A DNA stretch of 64,000 bases from Candidatus Bathyarchaeia archaeon (GTDB lineage Archaea; Thermoproteota; Bathyarchaeia; Bathyarchaeales; Bathycorpusculaceae). Below are positions 1,825 through 16,918 of the stretch, in pieces. Where the stretch lies: contig JAVZNE010000001.1 in NCBI GenBank assembly GCA_038882975.1, forward strand, positions 1 to 64,000, given 5' to 3'. Positions within the stretch are counted from its first letter, which is position 1; every line of letters starts with the position of its first letter. The notes below the pieces were generated by a model. The model did no database searches and was not told where the DNA came from. It saw nothing but the letters and a program-made list of their open reading frames with translations. The translations under genes were made by a program, and so were the position numbers.

Positions 1825-1978
1825 TGATTTTCCGCTTTTGGTATGATTTTTGCTTGCTTATTTACGTTTCCTAAAGAACAGCAGCTTATCCCTTTCATAT
1901 ATGTCCAAATACAACTTCTAAATGGCGCTTTGGAACAAATAAAATACTCCAAGCTATAACACGCCCACCATAAAAATC

Positions 1979-2110
1979 TCAGGCTAAGGCACCGTGTGTG
2001 GGGCCGAGGCCGGGATTTGAACCCCTTTCTCTTGTTGGCTGCTGGCTCTGAACTTCCTCGTTTAACTTCTTGTCTGGCTTCTCGTCTCTCTCCTTGTCTT
2101 TTCCTTCCAT
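1979..2110 (-). pseudogene. int(N): N-terminal fragment of the split integrase of element A
   Basis: ATG at 2110 with GGAGG SD and TTTTAAA TATA box near 2157-2163. Reads MEGKDKERD...RERGSNPGLGPT through the att repeat, in frame with the 4573-5622 ORF once the att copies are joined. Confidence 0.85.
1997..2024. repeat. att site of element A (copy of the tRNA-His 3' end)
   Basis: TGTGGGGCCGAGGCCGGGATTTGAACCC is identical to 5659-5686. Confidence 0.95.
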
Positions 2111-2263
2111 CTTAGGGGTTCCTCCTTGCAGTCTCTATATTGTGGTGGCTTCTGCATTTAAAACTTATCTATGACTTGAGTTCAGAATATTGGCTGGGAG
2201 CTCTGGGGGGCTATTCGGCTTCTGGAACTTGGGGGTTCCTCCGACTGGCTCTCTGGGGCTCCC

Positions 2264-2587
2264 CTATTCGGCTGTTTTTATGAGTTGGAATTCAATGGCG
2301 TAAACGAATATTTCTGGCTGCCAGAAGCCATAAAGCCTAATCCATGTTGCCTTAAACTCTTCTAGGCTGTTGAAGCCTTCTGCTTTGGCTTCTTCTGGGG
2401 TTATGTCGCCTAGGCGCTGCTGCCAACATCTAACTATTTTGACGTAAGCCTTAGGGCCTTCCGAATAATCGTCCATGATTGGGTAGATGCAGCCTTCCTT
2501 CCATAGGGGCTTTAAGCGTCTGGTTTGAGTTTTGCGGCCTTCCAGGATGAGAAAAAGGAGGGGGCGTTTGAAGATAAGCGGCGGCAT
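2264..2587 (-). CDS. ASCH domain protein
   Basis: F....ILEGRKTQTRR signature and QRLGDITPEEAKAEGF motif. Confidence 0.85.
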   Translation of the reverse strand: MPPLIFKRPLLFLILEGRKTQTRRLKPLWKEGCIYPIMDDYSEGPKAYVKIVRCWQQRLGDITPEEAKAEGFNSLEEFKATWIRLYGFWQPEIFVYAIEFQLIKTAE

Positions 2588-2591
2588 GGGT

Positions 2592-2711
2592 TTATTCCCT
2601 TCCTGGGGGCGTTGGGAATCCGCAGCTTGGGCAAGCTTTGGGGCTTAAGCGTCTGATATATTGACGGCCGCAATAGGGGCATTTGGCATCTAGCCTAAAG
2701 GGGTCTGCCAT
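2592..2711 (-). CDS. 39-aa zinc-ribbon microprotein (absent from the ORF track)
   Basis: MADPFRLDAKCPYCGRQYIRRLSPKACPSCGFPTPPGRE, with two CxxC motifs and a GGAGG SD upstream. Confidence 0.65.
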   Translation of the reverse strand: MADPFRLDAKCPYCGRQYIRRLSPKACPSCGFPTPPGRE

Positions 2712-2944
2712 TTCGTGGGTTCCTCCTCGGTTAAAAGGCTTAAGGGTTGGCGCTATTTAAAATCAACGTCAGAATTGTTTAGAGCTGTCTGAATAAGGCT
2801 CAATATGCGGAGAAAATGGAGTTTTGGAAGCCTTTATTTTCGCCGGCCCCTCCCCCTAGGGTTTCCATTGGAAAATGTCAATTTTAGGGCCTCTGAAACT
2901 GCAAAATTGACCTACCCCCTCTAGGTTTTTAAGCATCTCTCCCC

Positions 2945-3118
2945 CTAGGTGTTGGCAGCTTTGACGTGTTCCGTTAAAAGGCTTAGGGTTTTGGCGTAAT
3001 CCATTAGGGCAGTGCGGAGGGTTTCAGATTCGCTTATTCCAAGCCTTTGGCTTATGCGTTTTAAAATCTCATGTTGCTGGCTGCTTAAGACGACTTTGAC
3101 GATGTGTTTTCTTGGCAT
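2945..3118 (-). CDS. 57-aa ribbon-helix-helix (CopG-like) regulator (absent from the ORF track)
   Basis: MPRKHIVKVVLSSQQHEILKRISQRLGISESETLRTALMDY: alternating beta strand followed by helix-GIS-helix. Confidence 0.75.
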   Translation of the reverse strand: MPRKHIVKVVLSSQQHEILKRISQRLGISESETLRTALMDYAKTLSLLTEHVKAANT

Positions 3119-3132
3119 TTTAGCCGTCGGCC

Positions 3133-3429
3133 CTAGTGTTTTGGCCCTTGTCTCGCCTGCAGTTTCTTACGGATTTTCTCCAGCTTCAGTTTGCCAGGGC
3201 TAGGGGCTGCGGCTCGCTTTTGTTTGGGCCATATTCTGGTGGCTGTTCTGAAACGCTCATAGCAGCGGGGACACTGCCAAAGGTGAATGAAAACTCGGAT
3301 TCGGCCCTTGCCGCGTTCCTCTTTGGGCGTAGCCTCCCATTCCTTAACTAGGTTGGCGGGTCTTTTGGCGATAGCGCCACAATAGGGGCATTGGGCTTCT
3401 TGTGCCAAGGCTGGCATTGGCTCTGTCAT
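3133..3429 (-). CDS. Zinc-ribbon protein resembling the Cren7 chromatin family
   Basis: CPYC...KEWEATPK...GRIRVFIHLWQCPRCYERFR resembles Cren7 [28 protein letters not shown]. Confidence 0.55.
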   Translation of the reverse strand: MTEPMPALAQEAQCPYCGAIAKRPANLVKEWEATPKEERGKGRIRVFIHLWQCPRCYERFRTATRIWPKQKRAAAPSPGKLKLEKIRKKLQARQGPKH

Positions 3430-3586
3430 TTGGCTTTCTCCTTCTTTGCAGCCTTTGCGGTCTTCTCATGATTTTGGCTTTCCAGGGAAAGACCTCCAAA
3501 AAATAAGATATGCTGGAATCAGTTTTTAGCAGTTCCGCCAAAATTTAAGTTTCTAGGTTTGAAAGGACAGAGAAAAAGGGGGATTT

Positions 3587-4015
3587 TTAACGGATTCTTT
3601 TAGAGCCTCTTTCCATGTCTGCTGTTGAGCCTCTTCCCGCTTGCAGTTCCTCGCTTTCCATGTCTTCTTCAAAATCAAAATCTGAATCCATGTTAGCCTC
3701 TGCCTCTGTGTCTGTTTCGGCTTCTCGGTGCTTTTTCCCTCGCTTAAGGTCTTCCGCCTTTATTCCTGGAAGTCCTTCGCCTGTGCTGTCTCTGAAGGCT
3801 TCCTCTTCAGGCTGCTGTTTTTTCTTTCGCCATATGCGCCTTCTTTGGTCTAGGGGCTCGTTGAAAACGCCTAGTTCTCGGTAAAGCACTGCTTTGGCGT
3901 ATTCAGAGGGCTTCATGTGGAACAGGGCTGCCACTTGCCTTAAGCGGTCTTCTGCCAAAGGGCCTATGCGGAAGGTGATTTGACGTCTTTTCCCATATTT
4001 GTCGGGCGGACTCAT
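3587..4015 (-). CDS. RHH-type DNA-binding protein with acidic C-terminal tail
   Basis: RQITFRIG...RLRQVAALFHMKPSEYAKAVL RHH pattern and a D/E-rich tail. The likely start is ATG at 4015, overlapping the upstream stop. Confidence 0.6.
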   Translation of the reverse strand: MSPPDKYGKRRQITFRIGPLAEDRLRQVAALFHMKPSEYAKAVLYRELGVFNEPLDQRRRIWRKKKQQPEEEAFRDSTGEGLPGIKAEDLKRGKKHREAETDTEAEANMDSDFDFEEDMESEELQAGRGSTADMERGSKRIR

Positions 4016-4383
4016 TTTTTCCATACCCCCATGTTTTGATGATTTTCTATGTTGTGGTTGCATGGTTTTTCTGAAAGCTGCTGCTTTGACGGTTTTATGA
4101 TGGATTCCGCTACAATGGAGTTTTGCAGTTCTGCAGCTGCTGGCGAATGAATAAAGTTAGCGTTTTCCGTCAATGTAGATGTTTTAGGTTTTCTTTTTCC
4201 ATACATGCGGGGCTTGATGCGTAAGAGTTTATGACATTGAGGACATCGGAAGGCACCATTATGAGGTACTGCTTCAGTCTTTGGGATTTTCCGCCCGCAG
4301 TTACCACACCAAAAACCGTTATCGTATATGCTGACTTTTGGAATCCATTTTTGGGCTTTGCTGTTCCACCGCCAGCGCTTCAT
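4012..4383 (-). CDS. Zinc-ribbon protein
   Basis: FWCGNCG...FRCPQCHKLLRIKPR. Confidence 0.65.
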   Translation of the reverse strand: MKRWRWNSKAQKWIPKVSIYDNGFWCGNCGRKIPKTEAVPHNGAFRCPQCHKLLRIKPRMYGKRKPKTSTLTENANFIHSPAAAELQNSIVAESIIKPSKQQLSEKPCNHNIENHQNMGVWKK

Positions 4384-4456
4384 AGATGGGCCTCCAAAGT
4401 TTTCTGATGGCCGTTAAGTTTGTCGCGGTCTTTTAGCCGTCTTTTTCTTTTCATTG

Positions 4457-4573
4457 TTAGGCCTCCGCTTCTAGGAAGGGGCAGACGGCGTGTTTTGTTA
4501 TGCATTTTCCGCCGAAGACGCAGGGTCCGTTTTTGCTGCAGTGGAAGGTTAGCTCAAGCTTTCTTTTCGCCAT
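4457..4573 (-). CDS. 38-aa Cys-rich microprotein (absent from the ORF track)
   Basis: MAKRKLELTFHCSKNGPCVFGGKCITKHAVCPFLEAEA; its ATG overlaps the integrase stop (TAATG). Confidence 0.5.
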   Translation of the reverse strand: MAKRKLELTFHCSKNGPCVFGGKCITKHAVCPFLEAEA

Positions 4574-5686
4574 TATGGCACCCACCTTGGCCGCTTAAAA
4601 AACATCGTGTCCGTTGTCTGCAGGGCTAGTTCCCAGCCTTCCGCTAGGAACCGGCTTATGGCTTCTTTGTCATGGATTCCGCAGTTTTCCACGTCAAAGC
4701 GTCTTGGCTGGTCTGGGTAAAGGTGGATGTATATCATGGTGGTTTCTAGGCTGCGGTGGCCTAGGCTTCTGCTGACCAGCGCCAAATCCTTGGTGGCATT
4801 ATATAGGCGGGTGGCAAAGGCATGGCGGTAGGCGTAAAGGCATAAGCCTCTAATGTTGTAGCCTGCGGCTGCAAGCTGCTTTTTAATCTGGTCCATGACG
4901 TGTTGGCAGTCTTTATAGTCCATGGGTTTTCCAGGCACATAGGGCTTGGTGAAAACATAGTTTTCCGGGCCTTTGTCCGCCGTATAGGTGCGCAGCATTT
5001 CTGCCAGCAGCGGGCTTATGGGAAGTTCCCTCTGCAAACATGCGCCGCTCCGCTTCTCTGAGCCTATTCGCACCAGTAAACGGTCAAAGTTGATGTCTTG
5101 TTTCCGCATTTGGAAGGGCTCGCAAGGCCTAGGCCCACACTCATAAAGCAGCCGGAAATAACAGCGCCACCTCAACTGTTTTGGAACTACTAGGCTGGCT
5201 TGAAGCGTGCTTTCCGGCGGCAGAACCGGCAGCGGCCTCCTCTTATCTCTTAAAACTTCCAATTTTTCTTTGATGCCGTTGGCTTCCCGGTACTTGTTAT
5301 AGGCGGCTATGAAGTTTTTCAATTGTCCTTTAAGCTCCGGCCTAGCAAGCACTCGGCTAACTGCTTTAACATCGTCTAGGTTTCCATGCACCATAACCGC
5401 CAGTCTAACCAAAATCTTCCTATAAGCCACAGCCACCCTTTCCTGCAACCTTCCAGAATCCACCCTCTGCTGCAAAAACACCGCAGTCCTAAAAATCCTC
5501 TGCAAAACTTCCCTAGGCAACCTCGCCTCCAAACTCTTCCAATATTCTAAACTGCGCTGTACCTGAAGCTCCCTCCCTATCTCCGCAAACCTCATGACAT
5601 TCTCAAAAACAGTGGTAGACACAGCGCCCGCCCATAAATCCCGGGCTAAGGCACCAATTGTGGGGCCGAGGCCGGGATTTGAACCC
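4573..5686 (-). CDS. int: int(C): catalytic portion of the split tyrosine integrase of element A
   Basis: Catalytic residues in GPRPCE, YAYRHAFA and LGHRSLETTMIY. The frame stays open upstream of the GTG at 5622 into the att/tRNA sequence. Confidence 0.9.
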
Positions 5687-5737
5687 GGGCGCCGGGCTCC
5701 ACAGGCCCGTAGGCTTCCAGGCTACCTCACCTCGGCC
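5661..5737 (-). tRNA. tRNA-His(GTG), target of two integrated elements
   Basis: G-1 plus GCCGAGG acceptor, CGGGC-CTGTGGA-GCCCG anticodon arm, C73 discriminator and encoded CCA. Confidence 0.95.
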
Positions 5738-5749
5738 ACTTTCATGGAC

Positions 5750-5785
5750 TTTTCCGTGACCTCGGCCGCTTTTCCGTAACCTCGA
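5750..5785. repeat. Tandem ~20-bp repeat next to the element B att site
   Basis: CTTTTCCGTGACCTCGGCCG followed by CTTTTCCGTAACCTCG; ACCTCG also occurs in the att core. Confidence 0.6.
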
Positions 5786-5797
5786 TACATCCTCAGC

Positions 5798-6994
5798 CTA
5801 TTTTCTTTTGCGGTATAGGCGGACACCGTTAACCACGTCGAAGGGTTCAAATCCTATTTCACCCAGTTTAACGGCCTCTTCAACGTTGTGGACGGCTTTG
5901 ATTATGAACTGGTCGTTTGGAAGGTTGTTGAAAAGGTTTTTGTCAAGTTGAATGTATATGAGTGTGTTGTCGATTTCCTTGTGGCCTAAGAACTCTTTGA
6001 CATGTAGAATGTCCTTCGTGTAGTGGTATTCCATTGTTGCGCGCCAATGCCTTAGAGTGTGGAAGGTTATGTTAAGCAGCCTTGGATTTTGCAGTTTAAA
6101 GGCCAAGCGTCTTCTAGCCCTGTAGAATATGGCTTTTAGGCTGTTTAAGGTGCAATCTCCAAACACGTATTGGCTTTTCCTAGGCAAAGCGTTAAGCATT
6201 CCTAGGAGTTTTCCGCTTAAGTTGTTGAAGATCCGTGGTAGGCTGCCTTTTTCAGGCGTGTTCAATATTATTATGCGTCTTTGAAAGTCTATGTCTGTCC
6301 ATTTGAGCCTTTTAGCTTCTCCGGCCCTCATGGCTGTTTCTTTAAGCAGTTGAAGGAATGTTGCCACTGTTTGGGGGCAGCCGGCTATAAGCTCGTCTAT
6401 TTCAGACTCCAAGGGTATGAAGGGGATTTTACGGGTCACTTGGCATTTCGGCTTCTCCCATTTTAACCCGTTGTATTTTAGGAAAAGCGTGTAGGCGTTG
6501 ATTATGTTTCTCCGCCTGTTAGGGCCCCATCCTTGTTCTTTAGCTAAAACTTCCTTTACGGTTTCCGGATTGAATAGGTTGGCGCCTTTAGCTGTTAAGG
6601 TTCTGAGGGCTCCAGTGTTTAGGCGTATGGTTTCAGCAGCATAGCCCTGCTTCTGCATCCACCATGCAAACTCAAAGATTTTTTCTTTTACATCTATCTC
6701 CCTTTGGGTTGTCTCCACAGCAGGGTTTCCATTTTGAGCTGTGGAGGCCAAGTTTTTCGCGCCTCTTGCCAAGGACACGCATACTTGGCGTTTAAAAGAT
6801 ATGTCGCTGTTCAAATTTAAAATCTGCCTTCCACCTTTACGTTTCGGGTTCTCTCTGAAGCGAAGCCCACAGTTTCGGCAAAGCCAACGTTGAACAGTTG
6901 AGCCGTCGCCTCGATAGCCTAAACCGTCGCGGTAAAGCTTTTCAGAGCCGCATTCAGGGCATTTAACGTTTTCCTTGGCAGAGGCCTCATACAA
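5798..6994 (-). CDS. int: Tyrosine integrase with N-terminal zinc ribbon (element B)
   Basis: CPECGS...CRNCG N-terminus; catalytic motifs TAMRAGE, FHTLRHW and LGHKEIDNTLIY. Confidence 0.92.
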   Translation of the reverse strand: MYEASAKENVKCPECGSEKLYRDGLGYRGDGSTVQRWLCRNCGLRFRENPKRKGGRQILNLNSDISFKRQVCVSLARGAKNLASTAQNGNPAVETTQREIDVKEKIFEFAWWMQKQGYAAETIRLNTGALRTLTAKGANLFNPETVKEVLAKEQGWGPNRRRNIINAYTLFLKYNGLKWEKPKCQVTRKIPFIPLESEIDELIAGCPQTVATFLQLLKETAMRAGEAKRLKWTDIDFQRRIIILNTPEKGSLPRIFNNLSGKLLGMLNALPRKSQYVFGDCTLNSLKAIFYRARRRLAFKLQNPRLLNITFHTLRHWRATMEYHYTKDILHVKEFLGHKEIDNTLIYIQLDKNLFNNLPNDQFIIKAVHNVEEAVKLGEIGFEPFDVVNGVRLYRKRK

Positions 6995-6995
6995 T

Positions 6996-7460
6996 TTAAG
7001 CCTTCAACCTCCATGGAATTGGCACTCTTTTCTTTAGGAATTTTATATCTGGACTTCCAACAACCTCGTAGCCTTGCTCTATAAGCTGCTTTATCTCTTC
7101 AAGTGACCCTGCTGGCTTAACAATGTATTCTTTAATAGGCTCTAGTAATCCGCGTTTTAGCTTTTCCAACTCGTTAATTTGGGCTTTAAGCTTAGCGATT
7201 TTCCGCATGTAAGCTTTAATGATAAGTTTAAGATTTTCGTTAACCCATTGAATTTGTAGTTGAGCTTCAGGACTTAGCTTGTTACGAGTTATTATGGCAT
7301 GGCATGAAGCGCAAAGCATGACGGTTATTTCTGGATCATAGCTGATATGGTGGACATCAAACATTTCCCTAGGCCCTCTAGCCCCACAAATAGCACATTC
7401 AAAAACGTTGGAGAACAAGAAGGAAACGACAGCCTTAGAGGGGCTAGAGGCCTCAGTCAT
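6996..7460 (-). CDS. HNH-like zinc-binding nuclease with coiled coil and integrase-like C-terminal module
   Basis: CAICG...DVHHISY...MLCASCH. Confidence 0.7.
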   Translation of the reverse strand: MTEASSPSKAVVSFLFSNVFECAICGARGPREMFDVHHISYDPEITVMLCASCHAIITRNKLSPEAQLQIQWVNENLKLIIKAYMRKIAKLKAQINELEKLKRGLLEPIKEYIVKPAGSLEEIKQLIEQGYEVVGSPDIKFLKKRVPIPWRLKA

Positions 7461-7466
7461 GACGGC

Positions 7467-7697
7467 TTAAACTCCCTTCAAAATTTTAGGGGGTCTTCCA
7501 GGCGGAAGTTTAGGCTTCTCTCTGGAAGGCTTATGGAGCAGGGGCATGAGGGCTAACAAAAGCTGGATTTCAGTAAGCAGCCGTTGGTTATGCCTGATAT
7601 AGTGAATGATTTTGTTGACTGTTGGATTCCGTTTTCGAGTTTTAATGAACTCTTCTATGGCTGTAAGCTCTTTCAGGGTGAAAATGTAGCTTCTCAT
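7467..7697 (-). CDS. Small basic protein, possible recombination-directionality or regulatory factor
   Basis: 76-aa K/R-rich ORF (MRSYIFT...PGRPPK) co-oriented upstream of HNH-int; function inferred from position only. Confidence 0.55.
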   Translation of the reverse strand: MRSYIFTLKELTAIEEFIKTRKRNPTVNKIIHYIRHNQRLLTEIQLLLALMPLLHKPSREKPKLPPGRPPKILKGV

Positions 7698-7760
7698 GGC
7701 TTGTTACCCCTTCTCTGCAAAAATTTTCGCTAAATTCCAACAGTTGGAATTTCTAGCCCC

Positions 7761-8027
7761 CTATTTTTCGCCTAGAATTTGCCTCGCTTTTTCAAGGGTT
7801 TTCTCAGCTTGTCGTCGTGCTTTAGCCCTTCCAAGACTTGTTAATTTAGCGTGAACTCTGCTTAAATTGTCCAATACTTGAAGCAGTAACATCATGTTTT
7901 TTCTATCGCCAACTTTTTCAAGCCGACTTAAAATTTTCTCGATTTTCTGCAGGGAGTCAGCTATCAATGAAGTCATTTTGGCATATTCGTAGGCGGAAAA
8001 TGAGGGTTTTTCGCTTTTGCCTTCCAT
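7761..8027 (-). CDS. Hypothetical helical protein
   Basis: 88-aa ORF in the element B operon. Confidence 0.55.
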   Translation of the reverse strand: MEGKSEKPSFSAYEYAKMTSLIADSLQKIEKILSRLEKVGDRKNMMLLLQVLDNLSRVHAKLTSLGRAKARRQAEKTLEKARQILGEK

Positions 8028-8152
8028 TTTCTCATGCGTCCTTTTATGCCTTAATCAGCACGCCATGGCCAATCAACGCCTTAAAGGGCTCAGAGCTTCC
8101 AACATCATCATTTTACATGGCATTCTATTCGCGAACCTTGATTTTCACTCCC

Positions 8153-8347
8153 TTATTTTTCCTTCGGTTTACGCGTTGAAGCCTTTGGAATTTCTCCTGG
8201 CGGTTGGGGCGTAGGCATCTCCTTTTTTGGCGGTTCAATGTAGCCGCCTGTCTGAGGGCCGCCCATTATGGGCGAAGCGCCAGCAAGTTTAGCCGGCTTG
8301 AAACGTCGGCTGTCAGGGCTTGAAGGAATCCTATCTTCTTCAGCCAT
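8153..8347 (-). CDS. Pro-rich hypothetical protein
   Basis: 64 aa, GAGGTG SD, start overlaps the upstream stop. Confidence 0.55.
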   Translation of the reverse strand: MAEEDRIPSSPDSRRFKPAKLAGASPIMGGPQTGGYIEPPKKEMPTPQPPGEIPKASTRKPKEK

Positions 8348-8523
8348 TATTTCTCACCTCTTTTCAGCTTGTTTGGCTTCGTTAGTTCCATATCAACACG
8401 GTTTAGTGAGGCTTTGGTTGGACTCATGCCATATTCGCCCGGTTCCCGGACTGTTGGCTCACCTTCAGTGTGCGGCTTATCATTGTCAAATGAAACCCAT
8501 GGCCTTTGCTTATTCTTCCCCAT
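8347..8523 (-). CDS. 58-aa hypothetical protein (absent from the ORF track)
   Basis: MGKNKQRPWVSFDNDKPH...RGEK with GAGGTG SD; fills the gap between coupled ORFs. Confidence 0.5.
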   Translation of the reverse strand: MGKNKQRPWVSFDNDKPHTEGEPTVREPGEYGMSPTKASLNRVDMELTKPNKLKRGEK

Positions 8524-8539
8524 GCTTTTTCACCTCCCC

Positions 8540-9157
8540 TCAAATTTTATACCTTTCAGCATACACTTTGACGGAGTAACCGCAGGAGCATTGAACGTTA
8601 AAGCCGTCTTTTATAAACGCGTAGACGTATTGCAGCTCAGACATGGTTCGGCATGATAGAATATTTTGAACGCCGCCAAACTGGCGCATGTCACACGTGA
8701 ATATTTTTTGGCAGTTTGGACATTGGATTTTCACCTCTGGGCCGTCGAAATCTATTAAGCCTTCACAATGGAAAACAATGTTTTTATTGTAAAATTCAAG
8801 TTTCTCGCGGATTTTTCTGGCTTTTGCCGCAAAATCTTCAACCTCTTTGTTTAAGGCTTCCATTTCGCTTTTAAGCTTGTCTACGGCTGATCGCCATTCC
8901 TTAAGCTCTGCTTCATAGTTGAAGCCTAAACTCTTTTCCAGGAAAAGCTTCAAAACGGTTAAATCAACGTCTTTAAACTGTAGCTTTTCTAATTCTCGCT
9001 GTAATTCCTCGATTTTGGCTTGCCTTTTTGAAAGTTCACTTTCTATAGAGGCAAATTGCCTCTGAAGTTCAACTTGCCTTTTTTGGAAAAGCTCTTCAAG
9101 CCTCTTCCGCTTTTCAGCCTCTAAACGTCTGATTTCCTCCATTTGCCGCCACCTCAC
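8540..9157 (-). CDS. Coiled-coil protein with C-terminal Cys (zinc) domain
   Basis: Long E/K/L heptad region, then CPNC...CSC. Confidence 0.7.
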   Translation of the reverse strand: MRWRQMEEIRRLEAEKRKRLEELFQKRQVELQRQFASIESELSKRQAKIEELQRELEKLQFKDVDLTVLKLFLEKSLGFNYEAELKEWRSAVDKLKSEMEALNKEVEDFAAKARKIREKLEFYNKNIVFHCEGLIDFDGPEVKIQCPNCQKIFTCDMRQFGGVQNILSCRTMSELQYVYAFIKDGFNVQCSCGYSVKVYAERYKI

Positions 9158-9408
9158 TACAATAAGCCTTTCTCTTTAAGCCTCTGTTGAAACTCTTCTT
9201 GAAGCCGGCGGTCTAGCCAGTATAGTTTAAGGCGGATGCTGGGCAATTCGATTTTAGGCAGCTTCTCCGCTAAAAACGCCAACAACTCCGCGGCTATTTT
9301 TTCCTGGTATGGTTTAAGCCGCCATTTGCTCTGCATTAAAGCTTCAAACTCCACGCGTTCGCGCTCTTCTTGTCGTCGCAGCATCTGCTCGATTTTTTTA
9401 TCTGTCAA
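9157..9408 (-). CDS. Hypothetical protein
   Basis: 83 aa, translationally coupled to the next ORF. Confidence 0.55.
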   Translation of the reverse strand: MTDKKIEQMLRRQEERERVEFEALMQSKWRLKPYQEKIAAELLAFLAEKLPKIELPSIRLKLYWLDRRLQEEFQQRLKEKGLL

Positions 9409-9520
9409 ACTTTACCACCACCTCACTTTTATTTTGGTTTGCGGGGCAACTGGGCTAAACCAATTGCCCATTCGCAAATTGAAGCCCAGAAAAACGTGAA
9501 TCGCGTAAAATCTCATTTTT

Positions 9521-9922
9521 CTAAGCCTCCAACTGTTTTATTTTCCAAATTTTCTTCTTTTTAATTGCCAAGAATGGGAGAACAGTTTCAATGAGGCTGT
9601 TTTTTTCAACTGGAATGTAGTTTTGGGTTAGGTAACGAGGATCCTGTAATATGTTGGTGATGGTTTTCTGAATTTTTGGAAGGTCTTTACTCAAAACCGT
9701 GAAGGCTGCAACGTCGGGGCCGAAAGCGAAGCTTTGCCTTGCAATCCATCGGCTGTTCTTATGATTAGTAATATATTGGTAGATGAGGCGGAAAAGTTTC
9801 CTTTGCCCTTCGGGCGCCAAGTTGTAGCCGACTTTGTAAAGGCATATTGTTATGTTGGCGAATTGAAGCCACCGTCTCACTTGAACCACCTTTTCCAGTT
9901 TCAATTCGGCTAGCTTGTTCAT
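9521..9922 (-). CDS. Hypothetical protein
   Basis: 133 aa, ATGA overlap with the helicase stop. Confidence 0.6.
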   Translation of the reverse strand: MNKLAELKLEKVVQVRRWLQFANITICLYKVGYNLAPEGQRKLFRLIYQYITNHKNSRWIARQSFAFGPDVAAFTVLSKDLPKIQKTITNILQDPRYLTQNYIPVEKNSLIETVLPFLAIKKKKIWKIKQLEA

Positions 9923-11610
9923 TTTGCAACCCCGAACTTGCCAACTTTAGGCACATCAACAAGCCAGCCGTCAGCCTTCAAAATGTCAACAACTTGTTTC
10001 GGCTCTAAGCCCAGCTCTTGAATTTTAGCATATAGGGCAAAAGCGTCTACCAACCCCTCGGAATCCTTATTTTCCGTAAGCCATTGGGTTAACGTTTCAA
10101 GGTTTTCTTTTAGTGTAGTTTGTGTATTTAGTGCAGTTTGTGAAGTTGGGGAGACGTAAGAGTTTTGGAGGCCTAAGCGTTCAGCAAGGTCCTGCACGGC
10201 TTTAAGTGTAAGGTAATATTCAACTCCGCGTCCAACTCTGCGTTTCTCAGTGAAACCTAAACGTTTAAGAGCGCGGCCCAGCCACTTGGTTGACAACCAT
10301 TTTTGCTCTTCATCGTAGGTTTGAGACATTGCCTCCTTGATCTGTCGGACAGAGAAGTAGCCATCTTGTGTTACAAGCTTTGTTAAAGTTTCAACTAGAA
10401 TGAATTCAGCCGTCTCCGTAATGTTTTCAACTTGTTTTTCTTGAGTTGTTCTGCTGGCGAGGTTAATCATTTTCTTTAAAAGGTTTAACTCTGGATTATA
10501 CTTGTCAAAGAAGGCTGCAAGGGTGAAAATAGGTTTCCACAGCTCCAAATCTCTAGCAGAAATGTTCATCTCCTTAACTTCACAAACTACACTTTGTGCA
10601 CAAACTACACTAAAATAGTCCACGAAAAGCATATAAAGCCCGCTGCGGATCTTCGGCCAAATTTGATCTGCAATATTGGGCTCCGCGTTTATGATTGCCC
10701 TATCCCTTCCACGCTTCATAATTATGGGAATACACCGTTCCTCTAGGACCTGCTCGATTCCCTCAATGTTGCAAACGATTTTTGGCGAGTAAACTTCAAA
10801 AGCCTCGGGAACAAGCCTTTCGCTACGTTTTTTCTCCGTGCGGTAAACTACTGCGCCTTTCTTGTAGCCTGTTAAAAGTAGATTGCGGAGCTCTTCAGCT
10901 CGCTCTTTACTCGCAAGCTTCTCGCTCTCGTCAAGAAGCAGGGTGCAACGGCCACTCTGTGTTAACCGATATAGGCTGGCTGTGCTAATATTGTTGGTGA
11001 AGATAGCGTTAAAGCAGAGGAGACTTGCAACCGTTAAAAGCTTGGTTTTCCCAGTCTGTTTTAGCCCGCCCACATAAACGTATGGATATGTGTTGAAAAG
11101 ATGGAAAAAGTATGTTCCAATTGTCCAGAGGGTAATGAAATCGTAAATGTCAGGATTTTCGAATTCTATGTATGTTTCATAGGCCTTTTTAACCATATTG
11201 TAAACTTCGGCGGGGTTGACGGATGCCCCTTCAAGCCAGGCTTTAACGCCCCCGAGAGGCCACCTGTTTTCAAAGTCAACAATGCGGTAGGCTAATCTCC
11301 AACGGAGAGGTTTAAGGGCGTCCTTATGCAGCGGAAATTTTTGCCTATCCGAAGTTATAAAAAATGGTAGCTCCTTTTCCTCTTGATTGCCTTCTTCGTC
11401 GACTGTTAAGCATGGAAGTGTAACGCCCACGACGGCTCGGCCGTCAATCACGTCTATGGCTGGATGCACTTTCCGCATTAAACCCTCAAATTTAGGCAGC
11501 ACCGTCAGTTTGCCAAGCCTAATGGCATTTCCAACCTCAATTTCAGCTTGAATCTGCTTTTCCGCCTTAACTTCAGCCTCAATTTTAGCCAACTCATCCA
11601 CAACGCTCAT
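9919..11610 (-). CDS. P-loop NTPase, primase-associated replicative helicase-like protein
   Basis: Walker A GLKQTGKT, Walker B LLLDESE, downstream R motif (ERCI) and a C-terminal wHTH-like region; coupled to the primase gene. Confidence 0.75.
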   Translation of the reverse strand: MSVVDELAKIEAEVKAEKQIQAEIEVGNAIRLGKLTVLPKFEGLMRKVHPAIDVIDGRAVVGVTLPCLTVDEEGNQEEKELPFFITSDRQKFPLHKDALKPLRWRLAYRIVDFENRWPLGGVKAWLEGASVNPAEVYNMVKKAYETYIEFENPDIYDFITLWTIGTYFFHLFNTYPYVYVGGLKQTGKTKLLTVASLLCFNAIFTNNISTASLYRLTQSGRCTLLLDESEKLASKERAEELRNLLLTGYKKGAVVYRTEKKRSERLVPEAFEVYSPKIVCNIEGIEQVLEERCIPIIMKRGRDRAIINAEPNIADQIWPKIRSGLYMLFVDYFSVVCAQSVVCEVKEMNISARDLELWKPIFTLAAFFDKYNPELNLLKKMINLASRTTQEKQVENITETAEFILVETLTKLVTQDGYFSVRQIKEAMSQTYDEEQKWLSTKWLGRALKRLGFTEKRRVGRGVEYYLTLKAVQDLAERLGLQNSYVSPTSQTALNTQTTLKENLETLTQWLTENKDSEGLVDAFALYAKIQELGLEPKQVVDILKADGWLVDVPKVGKFGVAK

Positions 11611-12611
11611 TTCACAACCTCCTTGATTACTTCGCGGATTAAACTGACTCCAGCTAGGGCGGAGCCTAGGCTTACACGGTTCTTATAATGGTAGTCGACA
11701 AGGGCAAGGCGGGCGGGCTTTTCCTCATCCCTTGTTAAATCGCAAACCCGCATAATTATCCGCTTTGCAGACTCGTAGGCTATGCCCCTCTTGACACAGA
11801 AGCCTAAGAAAGCCATCTCCAACCGGTTCCTTCGGCCCTTAACCCAATATCGGGCTAAGAATTTGGCTGCTTGCTCTTCCTCTTCGTTTGGCAAAGACAC
11901 CATAAACTCATACAGTTTTAAGGGAATTTGAACCGACTTCTCAGCCTTAAAACTCATTATCTTAGCTGTGTCGGCCTCTGAAAATGAAATTCCGCAACAT
12001 TCAAGCAGGGTTTCGTTTTGGATAGGTTGAAAAGTTTCAAAGTCAAGTAGACTGCTCCATTTACCGGCGGCTTGATGCTTGCCTAATGGAAGCTTTACAA
12101 AGTTGCCGTAGGGCCTTTCAGGTGTAAGTTCCGTTTGCTTTGGGAAAACCTCTACATCTTTAGGGTTTAACCCCGATAATTCCAAAATGCGAAGCCCAAG
12201 CCAACGGGCAACCTTAGCCGGTGTCGGAACATTGAAAAGAATCCAGATATGATAACTCGAATCGGGCCAACGGCTTGCCTCAAGCAAAACCGCATGATGC
12301 CAAATACGAGGTCTTTCAACACCGTCGGGCTCCTTTTTCTTTTCAAAACAAACCCGCAATATTTTATGGGCCGCAGCTTCTAGATCATTCAGCCTTTCAG
12401 AATCCAAGTCAAAGCATACATATTTAACTGTGTTGTCTAAGCCTAGCTGGTAGGCCCCGACGGTTAGCTTTCCCGTTAAATGATCCTGCAAAATATCCAA
12501 CGTTAATGGCTGTTCGACTTTAACGTAACTGCCATCATTTTTCTGTAGGCAGTGGCAATCTACGCGGTTGACGAAACACTTAAAAACCGCTTCAGCTAAA
12601 CAAATGGTCAT
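11607..12611 (-). CDS. Archaeo-eukaryotic primase (AEP, TOTE-primase-like)
   Basis: HLTGKLTVGAYQL, CFDLD (DxD), SYHIWILF, EVFPKQ and GNFVKLPLG motifs, plus a PriCT-like helical C-terminus. Confidence 0.85.
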   Translation of the reverse strand: MTICLAEAVFKCFVNRVDCHCLQKNDGSYVKVEQPLTLDILQDHLTGKLTVGAYQLGLDNTVKYVCFDLDSERLNDLEAAAHKILRVCFEKKKEPDGVERPRIWHHAVLLEASRWPDSSYHIWILFNVPTPAKVARWLGLRILELSGLNPKDVEVFPKQTELTPERPYGNFVKLPLGKHQAAGKWSSLLDFETFQPIQNETLLECCGISFSEADTAKIMSFKAEKSVQIPLKLYEFMVSLPNEEEEQAAKFLARYWVKGRRNRLEMAFLGFCVKRGIAYESAKRIIMRVCDLTRDEEKPARLALVDYHYKNRVSLGSALAGVSLIREVIKEVVK

Positions 12612-12757
12612 TTTAATGCCTTCTTAACGTCTCTACATGTTAAATCGCTGTGCTTTGGGCATTCCGCACAAACATTGGGCGGTATAGGCTTTCTCAAACC
12701 TATGCAACCTGCGATTGTGCTGTCCTCTTTAATTTTTTGTTTCTTAGTTTCACTCAT
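12608..12757 (-). CDS. 49-aa Cys-containing microprotein (absent from the ORF track)
   Basis: MSETKKQKIKEDSTIAGCIGLRKPIPPNVCAECPKHSDLTCRDVKKALK; its stop overlaps the primase ATG. Confidence 0.5.
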   Translation of the reverse strand: MSETKKQKIKEDSTIAGCIGLRKPIPPNVCAECPKHSDLTCRDVKKALK

Positions 12758-12847
12758 TAGTTTCACTCTTCTCTTCAACAATATGGTCCAAAAAACCGCG
12801 AAAACCGCTGAGTTTTGCGGCGGGCGTGTAACTTAAAGTGTAACCTT

Positions 12848-13246
12848 TCATATTTTCCCTTCCCTCTGCAACCTAACCAGCCGCCGCTCCTCTTTTGTCA
12901 AAAAGCTGGGCAAAGGCTCAGCAAACCAGGCGTGTTTCTCGCGGAAATCGTTCCACGACCCGCATTTTTGGCATCTGGCCCTAAATTTTCCCTTAGTTAG
13001 CTGATAGTCAAAACTTTGGAGATCATTGTTCCCACACCGACACCGCAAAATGCCTAATTCATCGTATTTTTGTGCCAAGCGAAACGTGAACCAAGCGTCT
13101 CTAAGCAGCCCAAAGCTCCAAAGAGGCACATTGTCATGGTTTAACGGCCTCTTTTTAGGCCGCCCCGGCCCTCCCGTCGTGCCCCTAACAAAACGCCCAC
13201 GCCCATTACGCTTATACTCTCGACTTTCTTCAACGATTTTATTCAT
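12848..13246 (-). CDS. Protein with N-terminal GRF..G..GGPGRPK motif and zinc ribbon
   Basis: RNGRGRFVRGTTGGPGRPKK, then CRCG...CQKCG. Confidence 0.65.
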   Translation of the reverse strand: MNKIVEESREYKRNGRGRFVRGTTGGPGRPKKRPLNHDNVPLWSFGLLRDAWFTFRLAQKYDELGILRCRCGNNDLQSFDYQLTKGKFRARCQKCGSWNDFREKHAWFAEPLPSFLTKEERRLVRLQREGKI

Positions 13247-13430
13247 GCTTCACCACATCTCTTGGCGGTTTCTCGGTGATATACAGCTTAAACGGGGCTT
13301 TCTTATCAAACACAATTTTAACGCTGCTGAAATTTCTAATATAGTCGATGACCGTGGCTATGTCCCGATACTTACCATACAAAACAACCGCGTAAAATAA
13401 TTCCATTTCTGTTAACTCCTGCTCTTTCAT
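13239..13430 (-). CDS. Small hypothetical protein, first gene of the leftward operon
   Basis: 63 aa with GGAG SD; divergent from the wHTH gene. Confidence 0.55.
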   Translation of the reverse strand: MKEQELTEMELFYAVVLYGKYRDIATVIDYIRNFSSVKIVFDKKAPFKLYITEKPPRDVVKHE

Positions 13431-13521
13431 ATTACTCCCTTTTTGGGTTTACTGTCACACTAGGTTTATCATTAAACTAAAAATATATAAGGTTTACGTT
13501 ATACTAAGTATTGGAATAAAC

Positions 13522-14181
13522 TTGACAGACAAGTTCGACATCTTAATATTCATTTATGAGGGGCAAAGGGAAAAAGGTCATGTAAGCTGGTCGGATCTGC
13601 TGGGATATTTTGTAGAGGCAGCCCCGCCCTTTCGTTATATCTCAAAACGCACGTTACATTTATGGCTTCTTGAATTAATAAAAGAGGGACTTGTTGAAAA
13701 AATCATTGATAAAGAAACGTTGAAGCCTTGTTATAGGACCACGGAAAAAGGCTGTGATGTTGCTCGGAAAAAGAATGTTGAAAAGGAATGGATAGGAGAA
13801 ATTCTAAAAGCTACAGAAAAAGTCTTCCGCGAATTTCTTGAAAGAGAAGAAGCAATGATCGATTTCTATTCAACCCAATCCACCCTCTTATATGAAGCTT
13901 GGAGAGCAATTTTAAAACATGAATTTCATATGTCAGAAACAGAGTTAGTCGCAATTTATAATTTATTTCAGTTAACAACAAATGAGCGGTTTCCCTACTT
14001 AAGTTTCTATTTTTGGTTGAAAAACCGCGAATTTGAAAAATTGAAACTAGAAGACATTAAAGATAAAATAGGTAAGGCAGTAAAATTAGGCATATACCCA
14101 AACGAAAAATTCCTTTTAGAGGATTGGAAAGTTTTACAAAGTTACCGTGAAAAAATAAGGGCAGCCCTAAAACAAAAATGA
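13522..14181 (+). CDS. Winged-helix transcriptional regulator, putative element repressor
   Basis: ISKRTLHLWLLELIKEGLVEK...YRTTEKG wHTH; divergent from the replication operon across an AT-rich spacer. Confidence 0.7.
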   Translation: MTDKFDILIFIYEGQREKGHVSWSDLLGYFVEAAPPFRYISKRTLHLWLLELIKEGLVEKIIDKETLKPCYRTTEKGCDVARKKNVEKEWIGEILKATEKVFREFLEREEAMIDFYSTQSTLLYEAWRAILKHEFHMSETELVAIYNLFQLTTNERFPYLSFYFWLKNREFEKLKLEDIKDKIGKAVKLGIYPNEKFLLEDWKVLQSYREKIRAALKQK

Positions 14182-14214
14182 TTAAAAGGAAGATTTGGCG
14201 GCTGAAGTGCGGCT

Positions 14215-14646
14215 TCATTTTTCATACCATGAATCTAAAATTTTGAGAAGTTTTTGGGTTATGGGGCTGGAATGGTTTAATGTCACTAGGTAGCCGCGTT
14301 TTCCAAAACGTGAAACCAAAACTATTCCGGCAGCTTGGAGCCTTCCGATAATCTGTCTAACCCTATGGTAGTCGTTTACGCCTATGGCTCGTGCAATTTG
14401 GCCCAATGATGAGCCGCTGCCAAGGCTTAAATAACGTATAACCTTCACCATTTTCGGGTTTTGCAGGTAATAGCTTAAATCATGCTTTTCAATTTCGTAA
14501 AAACTTTGGTGTTCAAGAAACTTTTTTAGGGCGTAACGTGCAGCCTCTTCAACGCTTAAACGTTTAAACCTTGCAAAACGCTCCAGACACGCATATAATT
14601 CAGGCGGCAACTTGATAATATAGACGCCTTCACCCCGGTTTAACAA
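14215..14646 (-). CDS. RHH plus wHTH regulator
   Basis: YIIKLPPELYACLERFAR..LSVEEAA and SLGQIARAIG...RLQAAGIV. Confidence 0.65.
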   Translation of the reverse strand: MLNRGEGVYIIKLPPELYACLERFARFKRLSVEEAARYALKKFLEHQSFYEIEKHDLSYYLQNPKMVKVIRYLSLGSGSSLGQIARAIGVNDYHRVRQIIGRLQAAGIVLVSRFGKRGYLVTLNHSSPITQKLLKILDSWYEK

Positions 14647-14652
14647 AGCCTT

Positions 14653-14813
14653 TCAGCCCTGCTGCAGCTCCTTGATAAAATCTTCCAAATATCGGGCTAA
14701 AAACAAGCAGTTTTCCGCCCGCGTCAAGTCGCCTTGGGCCTTAAACTCTGCAGCCTTTACGTGTAATGCCTTAATTTTCTCTTTCAACTTTTTTAGGTTG
14801 AATCCATATTCCA
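14653..14813 (-). CDS. Small hypothetical protein
   Basis: MEYGFNLKKLKEKIK...; start uncertain. Confidence 0.4.
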
Positions 14814-14947
14814 TGCTCATTGACATACACCCGTTTCTCTTTAACCGCCAACTCAAACTCTAAACGCTTAATTTTTCTCCTCAACTTCAAATTTTGATAT
14901 GTTAAAAAAGCAGCCAATATTGTTAAAACTAAATGTAAAGTGTCCAT
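14771..14947 (-). CDS. Small single-TM protein with basic tail
   Basis: MDTLHLVLTILAAFLTYQNLKLRRKIKRLE; GAGGTG SD upstream. Confidence 0.5.
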   Translation of the reverse strand: MDTLHLVLTILAAFLTYQNLKLRRKIKRLEFELAVKEKRVYVNEHGIWIQPKKVEREN

Positions 14948-14957
14948 CAACCCACCT

Positions 14958-15182
14958 CTAAGCCCAAAGGGCCAAAGTTTTCGTTGCCTTGCAATAATAG
15001 GCTTCAAACTCGGCTTGGCCTGTTTGGCCTTGCAAAAGCTGGTTTATTTTAGCCTTAATCTGCTCTACAAGCCCGCAGAAAACCACATTCGCGTAGTTTA
15101 TAGGATAAAATCGTTTGTCCTTCAAGGGCCGCCAATATAACAGCCAACGCTGTGGGCTGCGTTGCAAAACAATCCTCATCAA
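14958..15182 (-). CDS. Hypothetical protein
   Basis: 74 aa, coupled to the upstream ORF. Confidence 0.5.
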   Translation of the reverse strand: MMRIVLQRSPQRWLLYWRPLKDKRFYPINYANVVFCGLVEQIKAKINQLLQGQTGQAEFEAYYCKATKTLALWA

Positions 15183-15484
15183 CCAGTCACCTCAAGAAGG
15201 CTTAGCTGAACCGTTTTAGGTTCCTCTTCAACATGCCCCTCAAAAATACGCGGCAGCCTATAGCCCGTCATGTTTGGTAATTCAAACCTTATCCGGTAGC
15301 CCATATGCCTAACCGTGAAGCCCCAGCCGTTGTTTAGGCAAACCAGGACACGGTAAGCCGCCTTGACTTTTTCAACAAAACGCTCGTCATCCATTAACCA
15401 TTCAACTGAAGGCTCAACGGCTGCAAAAGTTATTCTGTCCAAGCGGATGTATCTGCGGCCCCTAACCGTCACCACATCAGTCAT
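15179..15484 (-). CDS. Hypothetical protein
   Basis: 101 aa with AGGTGA SD. Confidence 0.6.
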   Translation of the reverse strand: MTDVVTVRGRRYIRLDRITFAAVEPSVEWLMDDERFVEKVKAAYRVLVCLNNGWGFTVRHMGYRIRFELPNMTGYRLPRIFEGHVEEEPKTVQLSLLEVTG

Positions 15485-15515
15485 TTCGTTTTCACCTGTA
15501 TATACAAGTGCTACT

Positions 15516-15553
15516 CGAAATATTTAAATATTTCGGTGAATACAAGTATTCAC
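15516..15553. promoter_or_regulatory. Divergent promoter/operator with two adjacent palindromes
   Basis: Perfect 20-bp palindrome CGAAATATTTAAATATTTCG (15516-15535) abuts the inverted repeat GTGAATAC-AA-GTATTCAC (15536-15553). Confidence 0.7.
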
Positions 15554-15584
15554 GAAGAATTTAAAGGGAGTGTGGTGAATACAT

Positions 15585-15746
15585 ATGAGTATGCCTCGTA
15601 CAAAAGACTTTGTGAAGTTGCGCAAATCTGGAAACAGTCTAGTTATAACTATCCCAAAAGAAATTTTGGAAACGTTAGGCTGGAAAGTTGAAGACGAACT
15701 ATATATTGAAGCGAAAAACGGGACATTAATAGTGAAAAAAGCCTAG
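15585..15746 (+). CDS. AbrB/MazE/SpoVT-family regulator, 53 aa (absent from the ORF track)
   Basis: KLRKSGNSLVITIPKEILETLGWKVEDEL signature. Confidence 0.85.
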   Translation: MSMPRTKDFVKLRKSGNSLVITIPKEILETLGWKVEDELYIEAKNGTLIVKKA

Positions 15747-16240
15747 CATTTTTGCGCCAACGGGCAATCCTATTGCAATTGAATACTCTAACGTTAGAGT
15801 AGCCATTTTTACGCTTTTAGCCTAGCCTAAACTCGTTAAAAATGCCTAGTTGTGTCCATGCTCTTGTTTCAGTCGAGGGTATCTTCCACATTGCCCCTTT
15901 TTTGAAAAGGGCTCAATTTTGCAGCCCCTCATCATCGCAGCCCATGTTTAAAAACTAATGTGTATTAGACGTCAGAAACGTCATGACGTCATCCAACACC
16001 ATTCTGGACATCATAACTTAAGACAAGCCCACAATTTGAACAGCAAACCTCACCAGTCAAACCATCACGGACAGCTTTCCTGGAGCCGCAAACTGGACAA
16101 GGCCTCTTAAGCTCTATTTCCACTCGAATATAATGGCTAACATCTTTATCCGGCGGCTCAACCATTTTAAAGACTCCTTAAACGTTGCACAAAGAAAAAT
16201 GGGGTTTTCTGCTGGGGAGACTTCCCCAAAAGGAGTTAGA

Positions 16241-16257
16241 TACCTCACCTCGGCCAC
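16241..16257. repeat. att site of element B (copy of the tRNA-His 5' end)
   Basis: Identical to 5723-5739. Confidence 0.9.
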
Positions 16258-16275
16258 GTTTTTCCTGACCTCGCC

Positions 16276-16291
16276 TACTTTAAACGTTTCA
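16276..16291 (-). promoter_or_regulatory. Probable native tRNA-His promoter (BRE/TATA), now displaced
   Basis: Minus strand GAAACGTTTAAAGT lies about 29 nt upstream of the tRNA 5' fragment. Confidence 0.6.
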
Positions 16292-16441
16292 GTTGTCTTT
16301 TATTTTCTTTTTCTAAACCATAGTTTGAAGGCAATGGTTTTTGCTGTTTCGCTTTTGCAAAAACACTAGCTCCTCTATGGTTTTCGAAAGTGTTTGTTAT
16401 TAGGTTTTAATGTTAATTGTGAGCGTGTACGTGAAGACGGT

Positions 16442-16918
16442 TTATTCGTTTGTTTCGTTTTCTATTTTTTGGAGGAGTTTTTGGGTTCTTGTTTTCACGA
16501 ATGCTGCGATTTTTTCCGTTGTTAGTATTTCTTCTTCTCTTTGCCTTTCCAGCTTTTCTTCGATAACTTGAAGTAGCTTTTCGTAGTTGACTGGTTTTAT
16601 TAAGTAGGCGTCTGCGTTGTAGTTTAGGGATTCAACGGCGTTTTGCAGGTTTGGGTAGCCTGTCACCATTATTTTTATCGTCTTTGGTGTTGTTTCATGA
16701 AGTTTTTTCAGTAGTTCCGTTCCGGGCATGTCTGGAAGCACTATGTCTAGCAGAGCGACGTTGTAGGCTTTTTCCTTCGACTTTTCTATTGCTTCTTTTC
16801 CGGTGTTAACTGCGTCCACATTGTAGCCTTCGGCTTCAAGGATTAGGCTTAGTGTTCTGCATATGTCGGTGTCGTCGTCCACTATTAGGATGCTTGCCTT
16901 TTCCCTCAACATTTTCAC
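16442..16918 (-). CDS. Response regulator (receiver domain)
   Basis: ILIVDDD, ALLDIVLPDMPG, MVTG and YLIKP motifs. Confidence 0.9.
   Translation of the reverse strand: MKMLREKASILIVDDDTDICRTLSLILEAEGYNVDAVNTGKEAIEKSKEKAYNVALLDIVLPDMPGTELLKKLHETTPKTIKIMVTGYPNLQNAVESLNYNADAYLIKPVNYEKLLQVIEEKLERQREEEILTTEKIAAFVKTRTQKLLQKIENETNE

Follow-up and report, generated by a model that had tools for sequence, protein, structure and literature searches.

In the opening 64 kb of contig 1 from a Bathyarchaeia genome (JAVZNE010000001.1, positions 1 to 64,000, the whole stretch analyzed and hereafter the window), the tRNA-His gene appears to carry two unrelated integrated elements, each placed by its own tyrosine recombinase in a conservative site-specific recombination that restored the tRNA, and each an independent tenant of the gene. 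We give this reading a probability of about 0.78. Element A lies past the 3' end of the tRNA and element B past its 5' end. The source genome (G000) comprises 1.42 Mb in 15 contigs, is 94.7% complete, and contains this tRNA-His as a single gene among the 39 tRNAs found. The runs containing the stretch are hot-spring metagenomes, and related public records bear the label of Bathyarchaeia or Bathyarchaeota metagenome-assembled genomes (MAGs). Relatives are designated here by G numbers. Logan contigs (runs X1, X2 and X4) served as read-level data.

Two insertions at opposite ends of the tRNA-His gene

The gene, its attachment (att) sites, the two elements and their integrases are as follows, with open reading frames (ORFs) counted after greedy calling.

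5661..5736, with the encoded G-1 at 5737 (5661..5737), minus strand: tRNA-His(GTG), found by ARAGORN and Rfam, CCA encoded
5659..5686, no strand: proximal att of A, the tRNA 3' end (T-arm, 3' strand of the acceptor stem, CCA) plus 2 nt
1997..2024, no strand: distal att of A, displaced 28-bp copy of the tRNA 3' end
2025..5658, minus strand: element A, 3634 bp, 5 of 5 ORFs on the tRNA strand
4573..5622, minus strand: IntA, intact tyrosine integrase of 349 aa, start 39 nt past the tRNA 3' end
5723..5739, no strand: proximal att of B, tRNA nt 14 to 1, G-1 and 2 nt upstream
16241..16257, no strand: distal att of B, displaced 17-bp copy of the tRNA 5' end
5740..16240, minus strand: element B, 10501 bp, 13 of 17 ORFs on the tRNA strand
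5798..6994, minus strand: IntB, intact tyrosine integrase of 398 aa with an N-terminal Zn ribbon, stop 60 nt upstream of G-1

Both repeats are exact. The longer one (1997/5659) contains the final 26 nt of the tRNA, including CCA, and 2 nt past it, while the 17-bp repeat (5723/16241) contains the 5' end; each has 2 matches in the window, against 0.00 and 0.07 expected, respectively (up to 3 mismatches allowed, 100 shuffles). A reading of this DNA made from the sequence only had proposed that the first repeat bounds A, that the second bounds B and that the two att sites do not overlap, and all of this is confirmed, with 36 bp of the tRNA gene left between the repeats. It had also assigned to each element a tyrosine integrase of its own beside the tRNA, which agrees with our searches. 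IntA and IntB are both encoded on the tRNA strand, one per side of the gene, and match PF00589 with 84.6 bits (E 8.9e-24) and 55.6 bits (E 7.1e-15), the cut-off being 27.1. The two proteins are 25% identical, both are full length, and the nearest solved structure for both is the archaeal XerA (4a8e). Tyrosine recombinases have the catalytic residues R...HxxR...Y; by eye, the candidate counterparts are YRHAF ... LGH ... MIYIH in IntA and LRHWR ... LGH ... LIYIQ in IntB.

Element B is an insertion at the tRNA-His 5' end. In G005, window positions 5661-5740 and 16241-19633 map adjoining each other, with an overlap equal to the repeat and an identity of 96.5-97% in the right flank; in G004, this flank likewise adjoins tRNA-His without B. 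In run X2, 5740 and 16300 are connected on one contig via 39 nt of G005-type upstream sequence. We searched for the whole of A and B in 40 relatives and found 5740-16240 at full length in none of them; only mosaic patches of B are present. The fullest ones belong to a B-like element on contig 4 of G013, which has a different integrase of the IntB family and for which neither a repeat nor a tRNA was found. G031 is polymorphic, with an empty tRNA-His site on contig 12 and a 4.06-kb IntB-type element on contig 101 (4198 bp). The flanks of the occupied and empty sites are the same (98.6-98.9% identical), and the repeat ends at nt 14 of the tRNA.

Integrase relics upstream of tRNA-His show that the site has long been used. 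In 6 of 8 congener loci with no intact integrase, 18-24 codons of an IntB-type C-terminus (...FRKRK*) are preserved (E 8e-8 to 9e-5, against 0.002 for the best of 20 shuffles), and the spacing between their stop and the tRNA is the usual one.

Element A is a classical tRNA 3'-end island, with a rebuilt tRNA, the displaced 3' fragment as a direct repeat and the integrase beside the tRNA. Its attP would carry the final 26 nt of the tRNA, and integration would rebuild the gene, leaving the integrase gene behind the tRNA and the displaced 28-bp fragment at the far end. In 300 other genomes of the same order, used here as an integrase census, homologues of IntA occur at 7 places in 6 genomes. At 6 of the 7, the integrase gene has its 5' end adjoining or overlapping a tRNA 3' end (one Glu, two Ala, two Cys and one intron-bearing tRNA), and tRNA-His is the target of none. 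No match to the full-length A was found in the 40 relatives.

A contig of run X1 has a joint 3581 -> 4340, where 758 bp of A are replaced, which suggests a variant form of A in other samples. In G005 (locus L021, 10794-11837), another tyrosine integrase of 347 aa, 22% identical to IntA, lies directly past the tRNA-His 3' end; a 3' repeat for it was not found within the following 29 kb.

The IntB family at tRNA 5' ends

Homologues of IntB (E <= 1e-20) are present in 240 of the 300 genomes, often in several copies, and G000 itself has six matches. The close members of this family are nearly all at tRNA 5' ends, mostly of tRNA-His. In a scan of species representatives, nine Bathyarchaeia loci were at least 45% identical to IntB; seven have a same-strand tRNA-His 41-101 nt past the stop and two have no tRNA nearby. 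Considering the best loci of 27 further genomes, 19 have a same-strand tRNA starting within about 150 nt past the integrase stop. What follows the stop in these 27 loci is listed below.

tRNA-His: 13
tRNA-Phe: 3
tRNA-Ser: 1
intron-bearing tRNA: 2
tRNA-Met, 392 nt off: 1
no tRNA: 7 (3 contigs end within 170 nt of the stop)

For 11 IntB-family loci, up to 20 kb of DNA behind the integrase were fetched and searched for a distal direct repeat of the tRNA 5' end. It was found in four, ending at nt 14 in three and at nt 11 in one.

G269, tRNA-His: 18-bp repeat, 4 upstream nt and nt 1-14, 9.3 kb away
G042, tRNA-Phe: 14-bp repeat, nt 1-14, 4.55 kb away
G234, tRNA-Phe: 14-bp repeat, nt 1-14, 8.5 kb away
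G268, tRNA-His: 23-bp repeat, 12 upstream nt and nt 1-11, 16.7 kb away

Six of the 11 loci have no distal repeat within the DNA fetched, and the tRNA-Ser locus has an 11-bp repeat only, too short to count. In six IntB-type elements, 78-100% of the ORF bases are co-directional with the tRNA. Other IntB-family copies in G000 precede tRNA-Ser (contig 8) and tRNA-Pro (contig 9, a relic) or lie on contig 5.

Contents of the elements, their linkage and alternative explanations

The remaining genes of both elements, and one relic in the right flank of B, are the following.

4012..4383, minus strand: Zn-ribbon protein of A, 123 aa
3587..4063, minus strand: 158-aa protein of A, N-terminal ribbon-helix-helix (RHH) and acidic tail read by eye, no family match
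3133..3429, minus strand: Zn-ribbon protein of A, 98 aa
2264..2587, minus strand: ASCH-domain protein of A, with a 41% identical counterpart in the IntB-type element of G031
6996..8027, minus strand: integrase-proximal small ORFs of B, 154 aa (weak HNH-like matches), 76 aa and 88 aa
9919..11610, minus strand: 563-aa protein of B with the Walker A motif GLKQTGKT
11607..12611, minus strand: archaeo-eukaryotic primase (AEP) domain protein of B, by Pfam and PHROGs
14215..15484, minus strand: distal small-ORF module of B (143, 67, 74 and 101 aa), 73-90% identical to the B-like element on contig 4 of G013
15989..16165, minus strand: Zn-ribbon ORF of B, 58 aa, resembling the IntB N-terminus (E 1.3e-5 in a small search)
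16300..16323, minus strand: 7-codon relic LWFRKRK*, like the IntB-family C-terminus, weak alone

We compared the 21 ORFs of A and B with Pfam and PHROGs. Most of them have no assigned function in PHROGs, and no structural match to capsid or packaging genes was obtained in either database, where remote homologues could escape. The sequence-only reading had described B as an element with a replicon and A as one lacking it, and this is borne out: B has the AEP primase and the Walker A protein, and no replication gene was detected in A by Pfam or PHROGs. The 563-aa protein has no sequence match in Pfam, PHROGs or the PDB and is a putative replicative P-loop NTPase. Small regulators are also encoded in B, which we take to be a plasmid-like element in integrated form. 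The 76- and 88-aa ORFs recur at the protein level beside IntB-family integrases in G013 and G004, and the DNA of 6996..8027 also matches beside such integrases in G031 and G018. In the otherwise ORF-poor distal 750 bp of B, the ORF at 15585-15746 (plus strand) is AbrB/SpoVT-like by eye. A contig of run X4 skips 8.3 kb of B (joint 7819 -> 16163) and may represent a shorter B variant in other samples.

Several observations weigh against two cleanly inserted elements side by side on one chromosome. No single read or contig was found to run from A through the tRNA into B: the Logan pieces listed stop within the tRNA, and none bridged it with 31 nt on both sides. Co-occurring strains in the same metagenomes have different neighbours of the identical 76-nt tRNA. 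Neither a circle junction nor a precise empty site of this strain was found for A or B in the Logan contigs. A clean empty site for A was not found either; no exact site was alignable, and the G000 3' flank is rearranged. In G004, G013 and G015, tRNA-His is followed on its 3' side by a GNAT gene, the ancestral neighbour, which in G000 sits on contig 7 and not beside tRNA-His. The similarity between the two copies of the A repeat extends outward to 51 nt at 90% (1974-2024 vs 5636-5686) and recurs 3' of tRNA-His in G003, G006, G007 and G013; we read it as an arm of older A-type elements. As for B, the 40 nt beside the repeat are not the same in G000 as in the "empty" sites of G005 and G004. These sites are free of B but perhaps old relics themselves and probably not pristine; just 7-9 relic codons, not significant alone, stand there as in the right flank of B in G000.

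When contig 7 of G000 (55483-56000) is compared with window positions 1825-1996, the homology ends about 35 nt short of the expected tRNA. Because the homology of the GNAT region stops there, a chromosomal breakpoint lies at the tRNA-His 3' att. A candidate tRNA-His fragment beside the GNAT gene (contig 7, 57708-57737) was rejected, being the T-arm of a tRNA-Asp. Joints 1745 -> 5661/5665 were treated as artefacts, with 25-nt sides lying in the look-alike T-arms of two tRNAs.

That A and B share one molecule rests on the assembly. Were this chimeric, A and B would belong to separate co-occurring strains and would have been joined through the identical tRNA. The Logan pieces of the best-matching run do break within the tRNA, variant strains are clearly present, and the A-region pieces listed for X1 have 4-5 differing positions and a depth of 107-145, against about 64 for the exact B pieces. 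On the other hand, the exact-match pieces of X1, the only ones for which we compared depth, have similar values in the left flank (761-1527; 65.5), in B (64.2 and 63.9), at its distal junction (55.8) and in the right flank (49.5), and in the contig the left flank connects to the tRNA solely via A. The similar depths fit one genome and are not proof of it. We consider a chimera improbable, with a small but real chance of being right.

It had also been proposed that B may be a helper and A its passenger. On this view A, having no replicon, would rely on B for replication or transfer, and the shared tRNA would keep both together. The lack of a detected replication gene in A, the primase and Walker A protein of B, and the adjacency of both elements in the contig would suit such a pair. 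However, IntA-type integrases were found in 6 of the 300 other genomes, all at tRNAs other than tRNA-His, and co-occurrence with IntB is uninformative because IntB homologues are in 240. Among 24 other IntB-type loci occupied at the 5' end, an integrase ORF within 1.6 kb of the tRNA 3' side exists in one, and this ORF, the sole case among 38 long ORFs scanned, is an IntB-type fragment (tRNA-Phe, G018). G013 has its B-like element without any A DNA. Genes like those of A are also carried with an IntB-type integrase: the 4.1-kb element of G031 contains homologues of the RHH protein (75% identical over the N-terminal 64 aa) and of the ASCH protein (41%) in the same order, and no primase. Between A and B we found no substantial shared sequence, only short weak repeats. 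The helper idea is therefore unlikely, its chance being slim, and A and B are better seen as independent tenants of an integration hot spot than as a helper-satellite pair.

The associated suggestion, that the use of opposite ends avoids competition for att sites, is not needed, as integration regenerates the tRNA. On contig 2 of G013 (locus L079, 286000-305999), an 8.5-kb element at about 10165-18840 lies between tRNA-His and a displaced 45-nt 3' fragment. At the 3' half of the gene, this 45-bp att adjoins the downstream motif that also stands behind the 28-bp att of A. At both of its ends, the tRNA is read through by ORFs (115 and 313 aa) that resemble the separated parts of a split SSV-type integrase. 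As this case illustrates, overlapping att sites are no bar to co-residence.

It is hardly credible that the 17-bp repeat arose by chance or as a duplicate tied to the promoter, with 5740-16240 being ordinary chromosome: the repeat is short and degenerate copies of the tRNA 5' end also exist in the upstream region, but against this stand the chance expectation of 0.07, the empty sites of G005 and G004, the occupied/empty polymorphism of G031, the nt-14 boundary in 4 other genomes, and a gene content of integrase plus primase.

To the right of B, window positions 16300-19633 hold a 3.3-kb response-regulator/ABC-transporter block that is 97% identical between G000 and G005; the backbone identity being about 86%, this suggests recently exchanged DNA. 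In G005, G004, G011 and G013, the block finishes with a 3' fragment (40-47 nt) of an intron-bearing tRNA of which the window has the intact copy at 19597-19696. This tRNA holds one end point of a rearrangement between G000 and G005, apparently an inversion of about 200 kb. Synteny with G005 also stops exactly at the 5' end of the tRNA at 1720-1824. Both intron-bearing tRNAs (minus strand) were missed by ARAGORN with default settings and found by Rfam. Elsewhere in the window, the contig start falls within the 5' end of a large-subunit rRNA gene (1-92, minus strand), and a thiamine pyrophosphate (TPP) riboswitch is present at 28112-28224 (plus strand; 69.9 bits).

Proposed promoter displacement and relation to known systems

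Two further features, one at each end of B, bear on the expression of the tRNA.

5740..5797, minus strand: spacer between integrase and tRNA (P' arm), no TATA-like box and no T5 run, conserved in the IntB family
16279..16284, minus strand: TTTAAA box lying 25-30 nt upstream of the 17-bp 5' fragment, located by reading the sequence

We read the TTTAAA box as the tRNA-His promoter left behind by the insertion of B. A box of the same type is found upstream of tRNA-His in relatives without an intact integrase. With a crude TATA measure (A/T at 6 or more of 7 positions, the window lying between -38 and -18), an A/T box is present at 8 of 9 sites without an intact integrase and at 6 of 26 occupied sites, and it is present at the displaced fragment too. 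None of the 26 spacers between integrase and tRNA contains a T5 run. Two copies of the tRNA 5' end, direct but degenerate, lie in the P' arm (5753-5772 and about 5775-5794). The notion that a P' arm copy co-varies with the target tRNA was dropped, as tRNA-His and tRNA-Phe share their first 8 nt and there is a single tRNA-Ser case.

In our main reading, B entered at the tRNA 5' end with an attP directly past the integrase stop (the att begins 58 nt past the IntB stop codon) that carries nt 1-14 and G-1. The mostly co-directional array now sits between the TATA box and the tRNA body; the box has stayed with the 17-bp fragment at 16241-16257, and the integrase gene comes last, directly upstream of the tRNA. 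tRNA-His would be transcribed by read-through from the integrase gene or from farther upstream, and the old tRNA promoter would fire into the distal end of B, where the 58-aa Zn-ribbon ORF is the first behind it.

Three points count against this reading. By the same crude measure, the 6 occupied sites keep an A/T-rich box. We infer the transcription of tRNA-His via the integrase gene from sequence alone. Finally, two IntB paralogues in G000 face tRNA 3' ends. One belongs to an 11.4-kb element on contig 3 (86496-97982), bounded by a 24-bp repeat of the tRNA-Leu(TAG) 3' end, whose IntB-family integrase is 43% identical to IntB and convergent with the tRNA; the other is a pseudogene on the same contig, facing the 3' end of tRNA-Asn. 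In the 5' geometry as in the 3' one, the att starts at the acceptor stem and stands directly past the stop of the integrase gene. More broadly we suggest, tentatively and with the odds somewhat against it, that the IntB family comprises Bathyarchaeia-wide non-split integrases that insert whole co-directional gene arrays between the promoter and the body of a tRNA, at nt 14. The tRNA would become the last gene of the transcription unit of the element, and the strong tRNA promoter would be given to the distal genes. The same family could then enter at the 5' end (co-directional) or at the 3' end (convergent), because the acceptor stem reads alike from both ends.

According to passages of a 2021 review of archaeal tyrosine recombinases (PMC8371274), no archaeal integrases other than the pTN3-like ones use the 5' half of a tRNA, and in parts of this and another source (PMC5495485) the rebuilt tRNA of such elements is described as cut from its own promoter and standing behind integrase-gene sequence. 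The earlier statement that tRNA-targeting integrases use the anticodon loop, T-arm or 3' end is thus incomplete, as the 5' half has to be added. As far as those passages go, pTN3/TKV4 of Thermococcales (tRNA-Leu 5' half) resembles B in having an attB in the 5' part and a severed promoter. In the pTN3 type, the integrase ORF itself contains the 41-bp attP, and integration divides the gene in two ("suicidal"). In contrast, B has a 17-bp att (nt -3 to +14) 58 nt behind the stop and leaves IntB whole, so that by this feature IntB, one intact ORF, does not belong to the pTN3-like or SSV-type "suicidal" integrases, defined by an attP within the ORF. The hosts also differ, B being found in mesophilic-to-thermophilic Bathyarchaeia and pTN3 in Thermococcales. 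A tblastn search of IntB against plasmids and phages returned, among the matches listed, distant bacterial integrases only. Thermococcus is absent among the best 15 of 77 matched plasmid records and the 10 genera named, 17 further genera being unnamed.

CalSub-E1 of Ca. Caldiarchaeum subterraneum, in part of Krupovic et al. 2019 (PMC6563490), is among the few elements with 5'-distal tRNA integration and in this is like B. Unlike IntB, which represents a family in many genomes, it is described there as a single element in one genome. The same part of that source (PMC6563490) mentions tandem arrays of elements at one att site, which the tRNA-His locus resembles in having several elements at one tRNA plus older relics. 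A and B differ from such arrays in using opposite ends of the gene, on opposite sides and not in tandem on one side.

Element A has no essential difference from classical 3'-end islands with archaeal non-split ("pNOB8-type") integrases. It shares with them the intact tRNA, the integrase downstream, the displaced 3' fragment and the Xer-like integrase. At 3.6 kb it is small, and neither replication nor structural genes are recognisable in it. Satellite-helper pairs are represented by pSSVx and pSSVi with fuselloviruses. They are like A and B in that a small element without a replicon stands beside a larger one; unlike in such pairs, neither co-occurrence nor shared sequence was seen for A and B.

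Integration into the 5' part of a tRNA is therefore in print but rare, the known cases in the parts of these sources that treat it being pTN3/TKV4, with split integrases, and CalSub-E1 (PMC8371274, PMC5495485, PMC6563490). The IntB family is very common in Bathyarchaeia and seemingly undescribed. Full-text literature searches, supplementary tables aside, gave nothing relevant for a tRNA occupied at both ends, which does not in itself show the situation to be unpublished. A widespread 5' family with an intact gene and separate att, the nt-14 boundary, and integrase relics upstream of tRNA-His were likewise not found in print.

We consider these results of moderate to good relevance to work on archaeal mobile elements. 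The double occupancy, in which one 77-nt gene provides a separate, independent landing pad for each of two elements, is real in the assembly, but it is a curiosity and incidental. IntB stands for a second, unrelated-looking family using the tRNA 5' half, with an intact gene and a separate att, and this family is not rare. For Bathyarchaeia, which have no cultured host-virus system, it provides a search rule for integrated elements in MAGs: an integrase stop with a tRNA start about 50 nt on. It also raises the question of how an essential tRNA is expressed when its promoter has been moved 10 kb away. If the proposed promoter displacement is true, the element would be stabilised, because any imprecise loss would silence an essential, often single-copy tRNA, and this would account for the persistence of integrase 3'-end relics upstream of tRNA-His across the genus.

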